Both the position numbers and the translations under genes were made by a program. The notes beneath the pieces were generated by a model. That model ran no database searches. It was not told where the DNA came from and saw only the letters and a list, made by a program, of their open reading frames with translations. From the NCBI GenBank assembly GCA_945865805.1, contig CAMBGJ010000001.1, positions 1 through 48,284 of the forward strand: 48,284 nucleotides of DNA. The letters are read 5' to 3'. Below, piece after piece: positions 20,594-26,667 of the stretch (position 1 is the first letter of the stretch; every line of letters starts with the position of its first letter). Source of the DNA: Bordetella parapertussis. GTDB lineage: Bacteria > Pseudomonadota > Gammaproteobacteria > Burkholderiales > SG8-41.

Positions 20594-21526
20594 ATGGACG
20601 CTACCAACTGGGTCTGGATACCCCTATCCATTTTTGCCGCGTTGATGCAGGCCGTGCGCACGGCCGCGCAAAAGCAACTGAATCAACGCATGTCCACGAT
20701 GGGCACGACGTATGTGCGCTCTTTGTTTGGTTTGCCGGTGTTGCTGGTGTTCCTAGGTGCCGTGACCCTCTATACCGGCCTTGGCGCGCCTGAATTCAAA
20801 CCGGCGTTCGTGTTGCACACGGCTGGCGGCGCGGCGGCGCAGGTGCTGGCGACCGCGTTGCTGATTTACCTGTTTCGCTTGAAGAATTTCGCAGTCGGCA
20901 CCATGCTCACCAAGACCGACCTGATTCTGACCGCAGTGGTCGGCACGGTGCTATTCACCGAACAGATCACCCCATTCGGCTGGGTGGCGATCCTGGTGGT
21001 GATGGGCGGCGTGACGCTGATGCTGCTGGGCAAAACGGGCACCGGCGTATTCAAAACGCGCGGCGAAGCGGTGTCACATCTGTTGACGGGGCGTGCGACA
21101 CAGGTGGCGTTGGCGTGCGCATTGTTGTTTGCATTGTCCTATCTGTTTTTGCGCGCGGCGACATTGGAACTGGGCGAGCAGAATCACTTTCTGTGGCGCT
21201 CGGGCTGGACCGTGGTGCTGGCCACCACCCTGCAGATCGTGTGCCTGGGCCTGTGGCTGGCGGTCAAGGAACCGGGGGTGTTCCGGCAAATGTGGCCGGT
21301 GCGCGGCATCGCCAGCTTTATCGGCCTGACCAGCGCGCTGGGTTCCATCGGCTGGTACTCGGCGTTCGCGCTGCAGAATGCGTCCTATGTGCGCGCCGTC
21401 GGTCAGATCGAAGCAGTGTTTACGCTGACCATTTCATGGCTGTATTTCCGCGAGAAAATTACCCGGCTGGAACTGGCGGGTATTGCCGCCACCGTGGCCG
21501 GGGTGCTGATGTTCCGGCTGGTTTGA
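20594..21526 (+). CDS. DMT-superfamily (EamA-like) permease
   Basis: About 310 aa, roughly ten hydrophobic helices, two-fold internal repeat. ATG at 20594 (MDATNWVWIPLSIFAALMQ...). Confidence 0.7.
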   Translation: MDATNWVWIPLSIFAALMQAVRTAAQKQLNQRMSTMGTTYVRSLFGLPVLLVFLGAVTLYTGLGAPEFKPAFVLHTAGGAAAQVLATALLIYLFRLKNFAVGTMLTKTDLILTAVVGTVLFTEQITPFGWVAILVVMGGVTLMLLGKTGTGVFKTRGEAVSHLLTGRATQVALACALLFALSYLFLRAATLELGEQNHFLWRSGWTVVLATTLQIVCLGLWLAVKEPGVFRQMWPVRGIASFIGLTSALGSIGWYSAFALQNASYVRAVGQIEAVFTLTISWLYFREKITRLELAGIAATVAGVLMFRLV

Positions 21527-21707
21527 GTAGGGGCGGCTTCACGCGTACGCGCCCCGCAGCGCCAGCAACAGAACCGCCCAGCGCCCGCAGCACATAGCCG
21601 ACCATTAGCGCTGGCTAAACGCCTGCGTTGCTCAATGGCGTTTCTTCACGATGCCCGAGGCGCTTGACGACCAGCCCATCACAGAAGTCCATCCCTAAAA
21701 CCAAACC

Positions 21708-22610
21708 TTACGGATACATCGCCCAGCCGCGTCGATCCGTCTGCGCTTTGAAGAAATGCCCATTGGTGCTGGTGACAAACACGGTGGACATATCCGGCCC
21801 GCCGAAGCAGACATTGGTGGGGCGGTTGGCGGCGACGGGATGCGTTTCCAAAACGCGACCCTTGGGTGAGAACACGTAGAGCATGGGGCCAGGGCCGCTG
21901 ACTTCCCAGCCGGCGGTGGCGATGATGTTGCCTTCAGCATCGAGGCACATGCCGTCAATGCCGCGATGCAGGCCGCGTGCGTCTTCGCCCCAGGTGAACA
22001 GCACATCGAATTTGCCGAGGCTGCCGTCGTCACGGATCGGGTACGCGCGCAACTCGCGCGGGATGCCGTGCGTGTAGCTGCTTTCGGCGACATACAGCGT
22101 GCGGTTATCGCGTGACACCAGAATGCCGTTGGGCTGGGTGGTGTCGAAGGTGGCGCGCGTGACCAAATAGCTGCCGTCGGCTTGCGGCGAGGCGCACAGC
22201 ACCGAGCGGTGATCGAGTTCTTCTTTTTCGGTTTTGTCCCAGTTACCATCGTTCACCGGGTTGGTGAACCAGATGCGGCCGCGATAATCGACGGCCAGAT
22301 CATTGGGCGTACTCAATTTCTTGCCGTCGAGCCGGTCGGCGATCACGGTGTTTTTGCCGTCGGCATCAAAGCGCACGATGCTGCGACCGCCGGAACAGCA
22401 GCCGTAGAGCTTGCCATGATTGTCGAAGCACAGGCCGTTGGTGCGGTTGGTGCCTTCGCGCCACACGCTGACGACGTTGGTTTTCAGGTCATAGCGCAGG
22501 ATGCGGTTTTTGCGGATGTGGGTGAAGAGTATTTCTTCGCCCGTCCACACCGGGCCCTCGGTGATGAGTTCGCCTTCGGGCTTCATGATGAGTTCAAAAT
22601 TCCACGACAT
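21708..22610 (-). CDS. SMP-30/gluconolactonase/LRE-family lactonase
   Basis: MSWNFELIMKPEGELITEGPVW...TNGLCFD...PNDLAVD...PNGI..S.D..TLYVAES...DGMCLD, a six-bladed propeller lactonase pattern. The start is trimmed to the ATG at 22610. Confidence 0.85.
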   Translation of the reverse strand: MSWNFELIMKPEGELITEGPVWTGEEILFTHIRKNRILRYDLKTNVVSVWREGTNRTNGLCFDNHGKLYGCCSGGRSIVRFDADGKNTVIADRLDGKKLSTPNDLAVDYRGRIWFTNPVNDGNWDKTEKEELDHRSVLCASPQADGSYLVTRATFDTTQPNGILVSRDNRTLYVAESSYTHGIPRELRAYPIRDDGSLGKFDVLFTWGEDARGLHRGIDGMCLDAEGNIIATAGWEVSGPGPMLYVFSPKGRVLETHPVAANRPTNVCFGGPDMSTVFVTSTNGHFFKAQTDRRGWAMYP

Positions 22611-22624
22611 GTTGATTCCTTGGG

Positions 22625-23446
22625 TTAAGCAGACGGTGCAGGGGGTTGGGGCGAACCTCTTTTCTTGATTACATAAACTATCGCGGCCGGCCAAAACAGC
22701 AGCAACAGCACTACCAGCAGTACCATGTTGATCTGCCCAGCGGCAGCGACGGGTGAGGCCGCAGGCGTTTGCCGCAGCGAATCCAGTACCTCGCGCCGCA
22801 ACTGATTCAGGTGCTCCGCCGGAACACCGTTGCCGCAATACTGACAGCGCGGCGGGTTGGATAAATCGAGCGAAACCTTCTGGTTGATCTTGTGCCCGCA
22901 GTGGTTGCAGTCGGCGAATACCAGAAACTCGCTTTGCAGGCGGCTGTTGATGATCTTGTCGCTGCGGCTTTCGTAGGCGTAGGCAGACTGCTGCTGCGCG
23001 TTGATGTCTTTCAGATGCTTGAGGATGAATTCGCGCGGTAGTCCCAGTGCCACCGTGAGGCTTGCCACATTTGCATCGCCGGCGTGTTCGAGCGCGTTCC
23101 AGATGGCGATGATCTTTTTTTCGCGGGAACGGAAGCCATAACCAACGATCAGCAGGATCAAGCCGTTGGCGATTATGATGGTGCGCACGAGCGGAAAGCC
23201 ACGTTCGATTGCCTCGACCTCAAAGCGCGCGCCCTTCTCCTGGCGTATCTGCTCCAGCGTGCGCCCATTTTTGTTGTCAAAGGTGTACTGGGTATTGTTG
23301 CCGGTTTTTTCTTTGATGACGACTTCGTTCCAGCGGAACGGATCCAGCGTCACCGACAGCACCCCCGCAATCAACAGCAGCCAGCCTATGGCAATGAAGT
23401 AATTATCGATCTTGTAAATGTCTTTCGGCGTCATTAGCTTGCCCAC
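22625..23446 (-). CDS. uncharacterised membrane protein with a cytoplasmic zinc ribbon
   Basis: 273 aa, three predicted TM segments (YFIAIGWLLLIAGVLSV; IIIANGLILLIVGYGF; MVLLVVLLLLFWPAAIVYVI). CNHCGH-x17-CQYCG forms a Cys4 ribbon. It is visibly lower in GC than its neighbours and lies 100 bp downstream of the kinase gene on the same strand. Confidence 0.6.
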   Translation of the reverse strand: MGKLMTPKDIYKIDNYFIAIGWLLLIAGVLSVTLDPFRWNEVVIKEKTGNNTQYTFDNKNGRTLEQIRQEKGARFEVEAIERGFPLVRTIIIANGLILLIVGYGFRSREKKIIAIWNALEHAGDANVASLTVALGLPREFILKHLKDINAQQQSAYAYESRSDKIINSRLQSEFLVFADCNHCGHKINQKVSLDLSNPPRCQYCGNGVPAEHLNQLRREVLDSLRQTPAASPVAAAGQINMVLLVVLLLLFWPAAIVYVIKKRGSPQPPAPSA

Positions 23447-23545
23447 ACATGTCGCTATAAATTGCGTCCGCTCGTTAATGGTGAATCCGCTTGCACCACC
23501 ACGACTGTATCACCGCAGCATCTGCCCTGTGCGCGGACAAGCCGC

Positions 23546-25156
23546 CTATTTGAATTTGGGCGGCGGTTTTCCGCCCGGCCCATCCGGCGGCGGTCCCAAC
23601 GTTCTGAGCGACAGAAATTCCTGTATCGAAAGGCGGCCATCCCTGTCGGCATCCAGGCGGACGAAATCACGCTCGATAGGTCCCCGCCCCCGCACTTCGT
23701 CCGCCGATAAATGGCCGTCGCCATTGGCGTCCATGTGACGAAAGTCCCGTAACAGCTTCTGTTCAAAGGGGTCGCCACCCGTGGGCGGCTCGCCGCGCGG
23801 CATATGCGCATGCGCTGGCGGCGCAGGGCGCGCGGTGGCCGGTGCGGCAGGCACCGCTGTCGCGCCCTTGTTGCGTTCTTCTTCGAGCTTGCGCAGCGCC
23901 TCGGCACGCTCGGCGGCGATCTTGTCGCGATCACCCGCGTTGCCGGCCATCATTTGCGCCGCGCGTTCTTCGACACTGCGGGTGTCGAGCGCCTGTTGCG
24001 CGGCGGCGAGTTTGGCGGCTTCGGTGCGCGCGGTGGCTTCCTTGGCGAGCTTGGCATCGCGCTGGCCGGTGTACCACGCGCGGCCGCCGAACGGTGCCGC
24101 CAACACCACCGCACCGATCACCACCCAGCGCCACGGCGATGACGGCTCGGGGTCAACATCATAAGGCGAGCGCACGGGGGTGCGGCGTACTTGTGTCGCC
24201 GCCGCCGTGCTGGTTATCGTGGGCGCGGCTGCGCCTGTCGCGCTACTTGCCACCCGTACGCTGGCGGGCGACGGCGCTTTGCCTTCCAGCGCGCGCTTCC
24301 AGATTTCCACCGTGGCGGGGCGCTGTTTTTCGTCCAGCGACAGCGCCCATTGCATGGCATTCAGCGCGGGCTCGCTGACGCGGCCCCGAAGCTGCGCAAG
24401 TCTGGCGGGCACGGTATCGCCTTTCAGGCGGCTGACGGCGTCCGGCGGATTTTCGTTGGTGTAGGCGCGATACAGCACGCCCGCCATCGCGTAAATGTCC
24501 GACCACGGCCCCTGGTTGCCCTGGCCGGAGTATTGCTCGAGCGGCGCGTAACCCGGCGTGAGCACGGCGGTAAGGCTTTTGGTGGAGCCGTTGACCGCCT
24601 GCCGCGCCGCGCCGAAATCGAGCAGCACCGGGCTTTGATTGGTGCGGATAAAAATATTCGCCGGCTTGATATCACGATGCAAGAAACCGGTTTCGTGCAC
24701 CGCCTGCAAGCCATCGAGCAGCGGAAAAATAATTTCCTTCAACCGGGCTTCGCTCGGCAGCGGCTGATCCTTGAGTATCTGGTTGAAGGATTCGCCATCT
24801 TCGTAATCCATCACCATGTAGCCGGTGGCGTTGGCCTCGAAATAGCGGTTCACGCGCACGATGTGCGGGTGGCTGAATTTCGCCAGCGTGCGCGCTTCCT
24901 GAATGAAGCGATCAAGGCCCCACTTGTAGCTCTCGTCCGCCTGGGTGTTGATGGCGACTACGCCACCGTCCGGCTCGCGCAGCGCGAGATCAGCGGGGAA
25001 AAACTCCTTGATCGCGACGCGCTTGTCGAGATGGGTATCGGTGCACAGATACGTCATAACGAAGCCGCCCACGCCCAGAACGGATTCCAGGCGGTACTCC
25101 TGCAACATCGTGCCGAGCTTGAGCGCGTTGCGGTAGGTGGTGTGGGGGGTAGTCAC
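23546..25156 (-). CDS. Hanks-type Ser/Thr protein kinase with one TM helix and a C-terminal EF-hand pair
   Basis: Kinase motifs GVGGFVMTY, VAIKEF, HRDIKPANIF, DFG, PGYAPLE. TM segment WRWVVIGAVVLAAPFGG (~aa 342-358), then a coiled-coil/Pro-rich region. Two perfect 12-residue EF loops, DANGDGHLSADE and DADRDGRLSIQE, map to DNA 23618-23731. Confidence 0.9.
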   Translation of the reverse strand: MTTPHTTYRNALKLGTMLQEYRLESVLGVGGFVMTYLCTDTHLDKRVAIKEFFPADLALREPDGGVVAINTQADESYKWGLDRFIQEARTLAKFSHPHIVRVNRYFEANATGYMVMDYEDGESFNQILKDQPLPSEARLKEIIFPLLDGLQAVHETGFLHRDIKPANIFIRTNQSPVLLDFGAARQAVNGSTKSLTAVLTPGYAPLEQYSGQGNQGPWSDIYAMAGVLYRAYTNENPPDAVSRLKGDTVPARLAQLRGRVSEPALNAMQWALSLDEKQRPATVEIWKRALEGKAPSPASVRVASSATGAAAPTITSTAAATQVRRTPVRSPYDVDPEPSSPWRWVVIGAVVLAAPFGGRAWYTGQRDAKLAKEATARTEAAKLAAAQQALDTRSVEERAAQMMAGNAGDRDKIAAERAEALRKLEEERNKGATAVPAAPATARPAPPAHAHMPRGEPPTGGDPFEQKLLRDFRHMDANGDGHLSADEVRGRGPIERDFVRLDADRDGRLSIQEFLSLRTLGPPPDGPGGKPPPKFK

Positions 25157-25210
25157 GGGAGCGTAATCACGAGTGAATGATTAATTGTACTGGGCCACAA
25201 ATTTAATTCG

Positions 25211-25294
25211 CTCCCCTTCAGGGGGAGGGTTAGGGTGGGGATGGGGCAAACACATTCACCCCTCCCATCCCCGCCTTCCCCCTGAAGGGGAAGG
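25211..25294. repeat. family B nested palindrome
   Basis: ctccccttcagggggagggttagggtggggatgggg pairs with cccctcccatccccgccttccccctgaaggggaagg. Confidence 0.85.
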
Positions 25295-25386
25295 CGTTTC
25301 TTTGGCTATTTTGTATCACAGTGCAATTAAATGACGATTACAAAATGACTTGTCAGGCCCGCCGTTCGCCCTGAATCGCGCGGCCG

Positions 25387-26667
25387 TTACAGATTCACTT
25401 CCAGCGTATACAACCCGCCGCTGAAGCGATCGGCCGCGTACACAATGTTGCGGTCATCGACATACACATCATTCATCTGAATCGCGCCTTTGGGCGACAG
25501 TGGCGGCGCGCCGGGGACGAAATACGCGGCCTCGCGTGGCTGATACTGATTTGAAATGTCGTAAACGCGGATGCCTGCGTTGAAACACGAGGTGAAAATA
25601 ATATTCTCCGAGCGAAACGCGTGTTTCGCCGGATAGTTTTCGTAGACGTTGTGCGCACCGAAGCGCCCGCCGCGCTTGCCGAAGGCTTCCACGGGTGGCA
25701 GCGGCAAGGTCGAAATCGTCACCAGATTGGTTTCGTCACTCATGTCGGCGATCCAGTTGAACTTGGGCCAATCCACGCCATCGTCCTTGTTGCATTCGTC
25801 GGCCAGTACCATCAGGCCGCGCCCCAGCAGCGGCATCGCGGTGTGCGACATGCCGTTGAACGGCGGCGAAATCTTCAAGCGCGAAATTTCCTTCGGGTGC
25901 GCCTTGTCGCCGATATCCAGGATCACCACGCCGCCGTCGATGTAGCCCATGTAAGCGCGGTCGGGCCGCTCAGGATAGACGCTGATGTTGTGCGGGCGGT
26001 AGCCGCCGTCAAACTTGGGGTGGCGTGGCACCGGCGGTTTGGCGTCGCCTACCTTCGTGCCCGGATACCACCAGCGGCCCGCTTCGACCGGCTTCGAGGG
26101 ATTGCGTACGTCAACGATGCGGTAAATCTGATGATCTTTGGGATTACGCGGCTGATGATCCGGCGCGCCGCAGCTTAAATGCACAAACTCGCCGTCGACA
26201 AACCAGCAGCAATGCGCGCCCAGCGAATGTGGGCCGGAGGCGTCAAAGTGCGAAATGAGTTTGGGCTTTTCCGGCGTGCTGATGTCAAACAGGTCGAAGC
26301 CTGCCGGCGTGCGCCCGGCCGACTGCATGAGGTTGTTGGGGTCGTTGGGGTTGCCCTTGCCGCCGCGCACCTGATAACACACCACCATCATGTCGCCGAC
26401 GACTTCCAGCGAATTGGAGCGCACTTCGCCATGCGGCAGATCAGTCTGCACCAACACCTTGGGTTTGCGCGGATCGGTGACATCCACACCGGTGAAGTTT
26501 TTGGGTGCCGACTCATGCGCGAGCCACAACACGCGCCGCCCATCGTGCGTCATCTGCATGGTGCAGCCCTCGCCGATGCCGCCGAAGCCGTCCAGCTCGT
26601 TCTGCGCCAGCAGTGTCATGTTCAGTGCCAGTGTGCGCGAGGCCTGTGATGCGGGGTTGAGTGCCAT
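25387..26667 (-). CDS. LVIVD-repeat-like beta-propeller protein (function unknown)
   Basis: 426 aa. Repeated units of the form hydrophobic-x-[LV]-x-D-[IV]-[ST]-x-P-x-x-P-K (VDVTDPRKPK, FDISTPEKPK, VDVRNPSKPV, LDIGDKAHPK, YDISNQYQPR). Confidence 0.6.
   Translation of the reverse strand: MALNPASQASRTLALNMTLLAQNELDGFGGIGEGCTMQMTHDGRRVLWLAHESAPKNFTGVDVTDPRKPKVLVQTDLPHGEVRSNSLEVVGDMMVVCYQVRGGKGNPNDPNNLMQSAGRTPAGFDLFDISTPEKPKLISHFDASGPHSLGAHCCWFVDGEFVHLSCGAPDHQPRNPKDHQIYRIVDVRNPSKPVEAGRWWYPGTKVGDAKPPVPRHPKFDGGYRPHNISVYPERPDRAYMGYIDGGVVILDIGDKAHPKEISRLKISPPFNGMSHTAMPLLGRGLMVLADECNKDDGVDWPKFNWIADMSDETNLVTISTLPLPPVEAFGKRGGRFGAHNVYENYPAKHAFRSENIIFTSCFNAGIRVYDISNQYQPREAAYFVPGAPPLSPKGAIQMNDVYVDDRNIVYAADRFSGGLYTLEVNL

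Follow-up and report, generated by a model that had tools for sequence, protein, structure and literature searches.

A receptor-type Hanks kinase with an EF-hand pair, predicted to be periplasmic, from an uncultured freshwater betaproteobacterium

We analyzed 48,284 nucleotides of contig CAMBGJ010000001.1 (this whole stretch is called the window, and all positions refer to it unless otherwise noted) from an uncultured freshwater betaproteobacterium whose genome is 93% complete. Two genes on the minus strand between positions 22,625 and 25,156 are the subject of this study. The first encodes a Hanks-type Ser/Thr protein kinase of 536 residues with a C-terminal pair of EF hands, and the second encodes a membrane protein with a winged helix and a zinc ribbon, which we call the Zn protein. 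In the explanation that we favor and consider reasonably probable, the kinase is a receptor-type enzyme whose EF-hand pair lies in the periplasm and serves Ca2+-coupled signalling, and the Zn gene is not its partner. A preliminary description of the region, made from the sequence letters and their open reading frames, had already placed the kinase at 23546–25156 (536 residues) and the Zn protein at 22625–23446 (273 residues), both on the minus strand, and these frames are found as described.

Domain organization of the kinase

The kinase gene and its parts are listed below in the order of the protein. AF2 denotes AlphaFold2 models and pLDDT their predicted local distance difference test.

23546–25156, minus strand: gene of the receptor-type Hanks Ser/Thr kinase, open reading frame of 536 residues with a GTG start; Pfam Pkinase and EF-hand matches; orthologues 58–83% identical
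24296–25096, minus strand: protein kinase catalytic domain, residues 21–287 (Pfam and alignment)
24071–24133, minus strand: predicted single transmembrane (TM) helix, residues 342–362, WRWVVIGAVVLAAPFGGRAWY (hydropathy, alignment and AF2)
23864–24070, minus strand: charged Ala/Glu/Arg-rich helical stalk, residues 363–431 (AF2 helix, alignment gaps)
23771–23863, minus strand: Pro/Ala-rich disordered linker, residues 432–462 (AF2 pLDDT <50; 23.5% mean family identity)
23600–23770, minus strand: compact EF-hand pair, residues 463–519 (Pfam; two AF2 helix-loop-helix units, pLDDT 83–93)
23696–23731, minus strand: EF loop 1, DANGDGHLSADE, residues 476–487 (canonical loop, alignment)
23618–23653, minus strand: EF loop 2, DADRDGRLSIQE, residues 502–513 (canonical loop, alignment)

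Residues 21–287 match the Pfam model Pkinase (PF00069) with an E-value of 1.2e-35 and 123.6 bits against a cut-off of 31.7. In an alignment of the window kinase with 25 homologues of 54–80% identity, the Hanks catalytic residues are invariant in all 26 sequences, including Lys50, Glu87, the HRD motif (160–162), Asn167, the DFG motif (180–182), the APLE motif (204–207), Asp220 and Arg279. The activation-segment threonines Thr192, Thr196 and Thr200 are invariant in the same alignment. The catalytic domain had been called complete in the preliminary description; this is borne out by the profile match and the invariant residues, with the correction that the third Gly of the GxGxxG motif is a Val. 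The Gly loop reads GVGGFV (Gly28-Val-Gly30-Gly31-Phe-Val33), and Val33, encoded at 25058–25060, takes the place of the Gly that is present in all 25 aligned homologues. A 98%-identical database cluster also has Gly at this position, and one other fragment has Val. These sequences suggest that Val33 is a polymorphism of the strain. Among solved structures, the N-terminal domain of PpkA comes nearest to the kinase domain (PDB entry 5hnv; E-value 9e-56, 192.6 bits, residues 9–291), and PknB matches with 3e-22. The AF2 model of the kinase domain is of low confidence because the alignment is shallow.

The two 12-residue EF loops lie exactly at DNA 23618–23731, where they had been noted before, and they are canonical in all 26 sequences. 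Asp at position 1, Asp or Asn at positions 3 and 5, Gly at position 6, a hydrophobic residue at position 8 and Glu at position 12 are kept in both loops throughout the alignment. The spacing of the pair is compact: the loop starts are 26–27 residues apart across the alignment, and 14 residues separate the loops in the window kinase. In the profile search that the preliminary description had proposed, not only Pkinase but also three EF-hand models exceed their cut-offs at residues 466–516, namely EF-hand_5 (36.9 bits, cut-off 25.9), EF-hand_1 (32.9 bits, cut-off 25.4) and EF-hand_6 (29.2 bits, cut-off 25). The pair model EF-hand_7 stays just under its cut-off (29.1 vs 30 bits). Mean identity is 55% in the EF region versus 23–30% in the linker, the stalk and the tail. 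Judged by these alignments, the EF loops are more than a chance pattern, because their ligands are kept in homologues and the region exceeds the flanking linkers in identity. Sequence matches of the pair in the PDB include calcineurin B, EhCaBP, calmodulin and lanmodulin. A basic C-terminal tail (KPPPKFK / KFKKK) is conserved beside the pair. From the canonical loops the pair is predicted to bind Ca2+.

Membrane topology

One hydrophobic segment is found after the kinase domain, at residues 342–362. Its position is kept in the 26 sequences, where a poorly conserved linker and then a WRW motif precede it and AW(Y/N) follows it. Trp/Tyr belts lie about 17 residues apart at this predicted helix, and the Kyte–Doolittle value of the segment ranges from 1.2 to 2.25 across the family. 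The AF2 model shows one continuous helix from residue 342 to residue 431 with pLDDT 72–88, which comprises the TM helix and the stalk. These results agree with the earlier proposal of one TM helix at about residues 342–358 followed by a coiled-coil and Pro-rich spacer before the EF loops: the modelled helical stalk covers residues 363–431 and the disordered Pro-rich part residues 432–462. Based on the model, the stalk is a probable coiled coil. Its length varies, and alignment gaps show that it is missing from family members of about 489 residues.

By analogy to PpkA and PknB, the kinase domain is predicted to be cytoplasmic and the stalk and EF-hand pair to be periplasmic; for the EF-hand pair we regard this location as likely. 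Several lines of evidence point in this direction. First, no N-terminal signal sequence is present ahead of the kinase region of about 340 residues, which we count in favor of a cytoplasmic kinase. Second, the TM helix is conserved family-wide and the nearest solved kinase domain belongs to a receptor kinase, PpkA, which supports a periplasmic tail. Third, relatives from the same kinase clade, which share the motifs YMVMDYE and GFLHRDIK and are 49–55% identical in the kinase domain, carry other domains after the TM helix: a Phosphonate-bd periplasmic binding protein (3e-17), a NosD/beta-helix domain (4e-58) or Sel1 repeats (2e-22). The placement of a phosphonate-type binding protein or a NosD domain after the helix again supports a periplasmic tail. 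Fourth, the only other EF-hand pair that we found in the genome belongs to an exported protein:

G000:C90:7052–7102 (L046 1435–2016), minus strand, another contig of the genome: EF-hand pair of an exported protein of about 167 residues

In this protein a clear Sec signal peptide, with VMA/ADG at its end, is combined with a charged helical region rich in Cys and, at the C terminus, an EF-hand pair as compact as that of the kinase. Since the genome's only other pair found has the same spacing and sits behind a Sec signal peptide, the periplasmic placement of the kinase pair is further supported. There is also a precedent in EfhP, a Ca2+ sensor with two EF hands that resides in the periplasm (PMC9132961).

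Locus and the neighbouring Zn gene

The genes around the kinase are the following.

25387–26667, minus strand: upstream flank, 426-residue LVIVD-repeat-like protein, 89–95% identical in relatives
23447–23545, no strand: kinase–Zn spacer, 99 bp, or 111 bp with the Zn start at 23434
22625–23446, minus strand: accessory membrane protein gene (Zn gene) without a Pfam model, 273 residues from GTG or 269 residues from the ATG at 23434
21708–22610, minus strand: downstream flank, 300-residue SMP-30/gluconolactonase-like (SGL) protein, with its ATG 14 bases past the Zn stop codon

The Zn gene had been described as lying about 100 bp downstream of the kinase gene on the same strand, and the measured gap is indeed 99 bp. 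From this arrangement the preliminary description had proposed a sensor-kinase/substrate module. Our survey of gene neighbourhoods, a check that it had itself suggested, speaks against such a module: the two genes do not occur as neighbours in other genomes. A homologue of the Zn protein is absent within about 4 kb of the kinase in all of the 80 best kinase-family loci among species-representative genomes. Among 20 relatives of the genus (21 genomes with the own one included), the Zn gene is present in three and never beside a kinase. Seven different contexts of the Zn gene are observed, and a kinase is found only in that of the window; elsewhere its homologues adjoin MscL, PTPS, UDG, a CHAT/TPR protein or PAP2. 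As the Zn gene is syntenic with the kinase only in the window, we reject the module. All four genus genomes with the Zn gene also contain a family kinase. However, a family kinase is present in 13 of the 21 genus genomes, the hypergeometric chance of this co-occurrence is about 0.12, and therefore it is not evidence for a link.

The gene order was also compared between relatives. In the window the order is TctC, TctC, LVIVD-like, kinase, Zn gene and SGL. On a 649-kb metagenome contig, with a kinase of 60% identity, the same order TctC, TctC, LVIVD, kinase and SGL is found without the Zn gene, and the kinase–SGL gap is 37 bases. Within the genus, one genome (G013) has LVIVD–kinase–SGL with its Zn gene elsewhere, between a luciferase-like monooxygenase and an MCP gene, and three genomes (G020, G001 and G006) have kinase–SGL without a Zn gene. 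A secreted TPR-repeat gene is located between kinase and SGL in G015. In G004 the order is LVIVD–Zn–SGL without a kinase, and two TAA stops interrupt the Zn gene; in G016 it is LVIVD–Zn, and the contig ends before SGL. The flanking proteins are 86–95% identical across the genus versus 58–74% for the kinase. The LVIVD/SGL junction (window 21708–26667; loci L002, L004, L010, L011 and L043) thus behaves as a variable slot, which holds the kinase, the Zn gene, both, or the kinase with the TPR gene depending on the relative.

Judged by gene order, the Zn gene is an accessory insertion at the kinase/SGL junction and unrelated to the kinase. The AT-rich composition of the Zn gene had been taken as a sign of acquisition. 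That it is an accessory insertion follows from synteny and not from GC content; the compositional argument itself is weak, as the deviation is slight (GC 0.558 vs 0.60–0.65 in the neighbours, and 0.72 vs 0.73–0.79 at third codon positions). To be noted, G/C-rich nested palindromes, CCTTCCCCTTCAGGGGGAAGG ... CCCCATCCCC ... CCCTGAAGGGGAG, lie in the spacer that separates the LVIVD-like and kinase genes (25160–25386), and one of them is scored as a terminator-like hairpin on the plus strand (25272–25296).

Distribution of the kinase family

The combination of Pkinase and EF-hand domains is found in 112 of the 120 best database matches of the kinase, which span 49–98% identity. The EF region is reached in 27 of the best 80 species-representative loci, and nearly all of these are metagenome-assembled genomes (MAGs) of Betaproteobacteria/Burkholderiales. 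In an even sample of the order Burkholderiales (400 other genomes from 167 genera), near-orthologues, defined by an E-value of at most 1e-100, occur in 11 genomes from 8 genera, again nearly all MAGs. By the same definition, nine of the 20 relatives of the genus have a near-orthologue. In more distant relatives, the corresponding place holds just one EF hand or a degenerate one. Based on these surveys, the EF-hand Hanks kinases appear as a lineage-restricted, patchy, sizeable and unstudied family of Burkholderiales.

In databases the members are named 'serine/threonine protein kinase', and once 'protein kinase-like protein/EF hand domain-containing protein'. Full-text searches of the literature yielded no characterized Hanks kinase of bacteria that has an EF-hand sensor, in line with the earlier remark that no member of this architecture had been characterized. 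Receptor Hanks kinases are already known and the architecture is visible in automatic annotations; the variation seen here is the EF-hand pair as their predicted sensor.

Tandem arrays were observed in four loci (L060, L052, L064 and L045), where the EF-hand kinase stands beside one or two paralogous membrane kinases, with three in a row in L060; the tandem partner in L045 carries DUF8082. In addition, two MAGs labelled 'uncultured Streptomyces sp.' (L055 and L062) contain the betaproteobacterial kinase family and are probably mislabelled or contaminated bins.

Genetic context and known kinase pathways

Across 29 kinase-family loci, the recurrent neighbours, as seen by crude gene calling and clustering, are an alpha/beta-hydrolase (11 loci), a GIDE-like membrane protein (7 loci) and the tandem paralogous kinases. 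No phosphatase, FHA protein or sigma factor is conserved beside the kinase in these loci. A single PP2C gene and four FHA-domain genes are present in the genome, all of them away from the kinase. A separate Ser/Thr phosphorylation cluster is located on another contig:

G000:C86:9950–11910 (L009, L128 and L129), other contig: adjacent FHA gene, the genome's only PP2C gene and a kinase in an open frame of 854 residues

We considered whether the kinase belongs to one of the known pathways. The similarity to PpkA does not imply a role in type VI secretion (T6SS), given that a search of the genome (93% complete) for the T6SS sheath gene VipB/TssC gave nothing. The T6SS threonine phosphorylation pathway was likewise rejected: neighbours of the Fha1 or PppA type are missing from 27 family loci, and in this genome the only PP2C gene and the nearest FHA gene lie in the cluster on the other contig. 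An assignment to the PASTA kinases also fails, since the NCBIfam model PknB_PASTA_kin (NF033483) gives 124.9 bits against a cut-off of 450 and no PASTA match is present.

Proposed signalling mechanism and points against it

Ca2+ occupancy of the EF-hand pair would change the conformation or the self-association of the periplasmic stalk. This change would control a dimerization-dependent trans-autophosphorylation of Thr192, Thr196 and Thr200, and the active kinase would then phosphorylate cytoplasmic targets that are encoded elsewhere. The phosphorylation would be reversed by the single PP2C, and the four FHA proteins together with this PP2C are candidate downstream parts. The more specific role of the family as a direct extracytoplasmic Ca2+ receptor, in which Ca2+ binding to the pair would switch the Hanks kinase on or off and the signal would be Ser/Thr phosphorylation, is a tentative proposal that we hold with less confidence than the receptor architecture itself.

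Several observations weigh against this picture of a Ca2+-coupled receptor kinase. The hydrophobic segment of the window kinase is marginal, with a Kyte–Doolittle maximum of 1.31 at residues 345–363, and contains a Pro and a GG. Its flanking charge, taken over 15 residues on each side, is net −2 on the N side and net +2 on the C side, so that the positive-inside rule favors the C side inside; the window kinase shares this pattern with its closest relatives, and more distant family members are balanced. Many family members do without the stalk, which is therefore not essential to signalling. Val33 may lower the kinase activity in the window strain. No partner gene is conserved across the 29 kinase-family loci, and hence the context gives no pointer to a substrate. 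Co-transcription of the kinase and the Zn gene in the window genome is possible, as both have the same orientation and a scan of 21500–25500 gave neither promoter-like nor terminator-like sites on the minus strand of their spacer. The main weakness is physiological: fresh water usually holds 0.1–2 mM Ca2+, at which an EF-hand pair with a micromolar affinity would always be saturated and would make a poor sensor. The pair may therefore report Ca2+ depletion, have a lower affinity or be structural.

Alternative explanations

The last point leads to the alternative that survives best, although we consider it unlikely: the EF-hand pair is periplasmic and constitutively loaded with Ca2+, has a structural or docking role, for example towards an envelope partner, and the real signal is perceived elsewhere. 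Periplasmic Ca2+ tracks or exceeds the external level, and the one measured periplasmic EF-hand protein, the two-EF-hand Ca2+ sensor EfhP, has a dissociation constant of 13.7 μM together with a demonstrated conformational change (PMC9132961), an affinity that implies saturation in most fresh waters. Furthermore, the long stalk and the Pro-rich linker would place the EF module far from the inner membrane, and the conserved basic tail next to the pair would also suit docking. The strict conservation of the ligands at positions 1, 3, 5 and 12 in both loops of all 26 sequences does not discriminate, as it fits a sensor and a structural module alike; the lack of a conserved partner gene near the kinase speaks against this alternative.

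Less probable still is a CDPK-like arrangement, in which the hydrophobic segment fails to cross the membrane, or the tail lies inside, and the EF-hand pair reads cytoplasmic Ca2+. The weak hydropathy of the segment in the window kinase, with its Pro and GG, and the excess of positive charge on its C side in the window subclade would be compatible with it. In other family members, however, the segment is clearly hydrophobic (up to 2.25) at a conserved position, and a single spanning helix cannot leave both ends inside. The periplasmic-type domains after the helix in clade relatives and the presence of the same compact EF-hand pair on an exported protein of this genome are also at odds with a cytoplasmic tail.

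Given the variable content of the slot, the LVIVD–SGL junction could be a hotspot for genes of anti-phage defence or conflict, with the kinase and possibly also the Zn gene as its cargo; we find this quite improbable. The PADLOC kinase models PD-T4-6 and mad6 do match (4.5e-46 and 1.3e-45), and the kinase is far less conserved than its flanks in the comparison above. These matches, however, cover the generic catalytic domain only, the NCBIfam model MADS6 reaches 121.2 bits vs 460, and no MADS genes were seen nearby, so that the identity with either defence system was rejected. An orthologue of only 60% identity occupies the same locus in another genome, which looks more like a long stay at this site than like mobility. 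For the Zn protein, PADLOC gives no match and PHROGs just one at 0.019, and neither an integrase nor other defence genes are seen beside the two genes.

Lanthanide sensing in the manner of lanmodulin is the most remote of these options: the compact spacing aligns without gaps to lanmodulin structures 6mi5 (E-value 2e-5) and 8fns and the NCBIfam model LanM (NF053806) matches weakly, but with 18.6 bits vs a cut-off of 135, two loops instead of four, and Ala at loop position 2 where lanmodulin EF loops carry Pro, the identity as a lanmodulin is rejected.

Comparison with known systems

With the preferred assignment as a receptor-type kinase with a periplasmic EF-hand pair, the closest parallel is PpkA. 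On this assignment the two would share their overall plan, with a cytoplasmic Hanks kinase at the N terminus, a single TM helix and a sensor in the periplasm at the C terminus, and activation of PpkA is thought to proceed via dimerization. The periplasmic part of PpkA is not an EF-hand pair, however, and PpkA works with Fha1, PppA and the T6SS. The PASTA kinases (Mycobacterium tuberculosis PknB, Bacillus subtilis PrkC and Streptococcus pneumoniae StkP) share the single TM helix, the kinase similarity mentioned for PknB and, by the predicted topology, an extracytoplasmic ligand module, whereas their PASTA repeats bind muropeptides and their hosts are Gram-positive or actinobacterial. The eukaryotic CDPK and CCaMK also combine a kinase and C-terminal EF hands in one polypeptide. 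In contrast to the window kinase, CDPKs occur as soluble or lipid-anchored enzymes that respond to cytosolic Ca2+, with an autoinhibitory junction and a calmodulin-like domain of four EF hands. An assignment to the plant/protist CDPKs is therefore rejected; the window kinase has two EF hands, which are parted from the kinase domain by a membrane helix and a spacer of about 100 residues.

In the two-component sensor kinases PhoQ, LadS and CarS/BqsS, a periplasmic domain that responds to divalent cations or Ca2+ governs a kinase in the cytoplasm. These proteins belong to the histidine kinases, their sensors have acidic-patch, DISMED2 or other folds, and they are not EF-hand Hanks kinases. The predicted sensor part resembles EfhP (PA4107) from Pseudomonas aeruginosa and further EF-hand proteins that bacteria export, with two canonical periplasmic EF hands. 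EfhP is a small stand-alone protein without enzymatic output, whereas the EF-hand pair of the window protein is covalently joined to a kinase. PknS is a receptor kinase with TPR repeats and thus with a different ectodomain (PMC13147305).

The Zn protein

The Zn protein had been described as having three TM segments, a winged helix and a Cys4 zinc ribbon, and this layout is supported by hydropathy, the AF2 model and the conservation of the cysteines in 28 homologues. It consists of TM1 (residues ~14–34), a beta-rich loop of about 50 residues, TM2 (~85–105), the winged helix, the Cys4 ribbon, a helix and TM3 (~241–264). Its true start is probably the ATG at 23434, which gives 269 residues, because the homologues start MAKKDIYKIDNY. 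Two domains are distinguished:

22946–23125, minus strand: winged-helix-like domain, residues 108–167 (AF2 pLDDT ~90; local Foldseek matches)
22829–22930, minus strand: Cys4 zinc ribbon, residues 173–206, with Cys180, Cys183, Cys201 and Cys204 (alignment and model)

The AF2 model (pLDDT 84) shows the TM helix, the beta loop, a long second helix, the winged-helix unit, the hairpins, a helix and TM3. Two beta hairpins, with modelled strands at residues 173–179 and 186–192, hold the four cysteines, which are invariant in the 28 homologues. In Foldseek searches the winged helix matches Z-alpha, MarR and ArsR domains with a probability of up to 1.0, a TM-score of 0.72 on the target and a root-mean-square deviation of 2.4 Å over 61 columns; the global E-values are above 0.04. 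The same order of winged helix and Cys4 ribbon is found in the N-terminal region of TFE/TFIIE-alpha, which provides the top Foldseek rows (5gpy_A, 6kf4_G and 7nvs_W). These matches are weak, however, with E-values of 0.05–0.08 and a TM-score of 0.16 on the query, and the unit of the Zn protein is located between two TM helices and is accompanied by a periplasmic beta-rich loop.

There are 51 close homologues of the Zn protein, and 318 clusters were found among 1.84 billion proteins clustered at 50% identity. None was found in 399 other scored genomes across the class. The conserved core of the family comprises TM2, the winged helix, the Cys4 ribbon and TM3. Pfam, NCBIfam and PADLOC matches of the Zn protein are all below threshold, and Pfam scans of ten distant relatives likewise gave nothing above threshold. 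The known zinc-ribbon families DZR, Zn_ribbon_8, FmdB and RpoP were rejected, with at best 12–13 bits against cut-offs of 27–34. By its conservation, the Zn protein is a real member of a rare, well-conserved family without a Pfam model. The most that can be said of its function from the model is that it may be a membrane-tethered adaptor that binds nucleic acid or protein. In one lineage (L040 5621–6795 and L041 84–1258), a gene of the Zn family starts 3 bases past the mscL stop, which suggests co-transcription with the mechanosensitive channel. For annotation, the Zn gene should not be treated as a kinase substrate and would stand as a separate rare family of membrane winged-helix/zinc-ribbon proteins.

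Implications

Bacterial Ca2+ signalling is poorly understood, and those EF-hand proteins that are known, EfhP among them, are small binders without a known enzymatic output. The kinase family described here, which is spread over many uncultured freshwater and soil Burkholderiales, is predicted to link a canonical EF-hand pair on one side of the membrane with a Hanks kinase on the other, and Ca2+ would then be read outside and phosphorylation would be the readout inside. The gain is moderate, since variable sensor domains on Hanks kinases are expected and the architecture is present in automatic annotations. If the proposed reading is true, the receptor Ser/Thr kinases of proteobacteria, for which few inputs are known, would gain a defined ligand. 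The family would then provide a link within one protein from environmental Ca2+ to the phosphoproteome in Burkholderiales, and its kinase would be the first EF-hand-gated bacterial protein kinase to be described.

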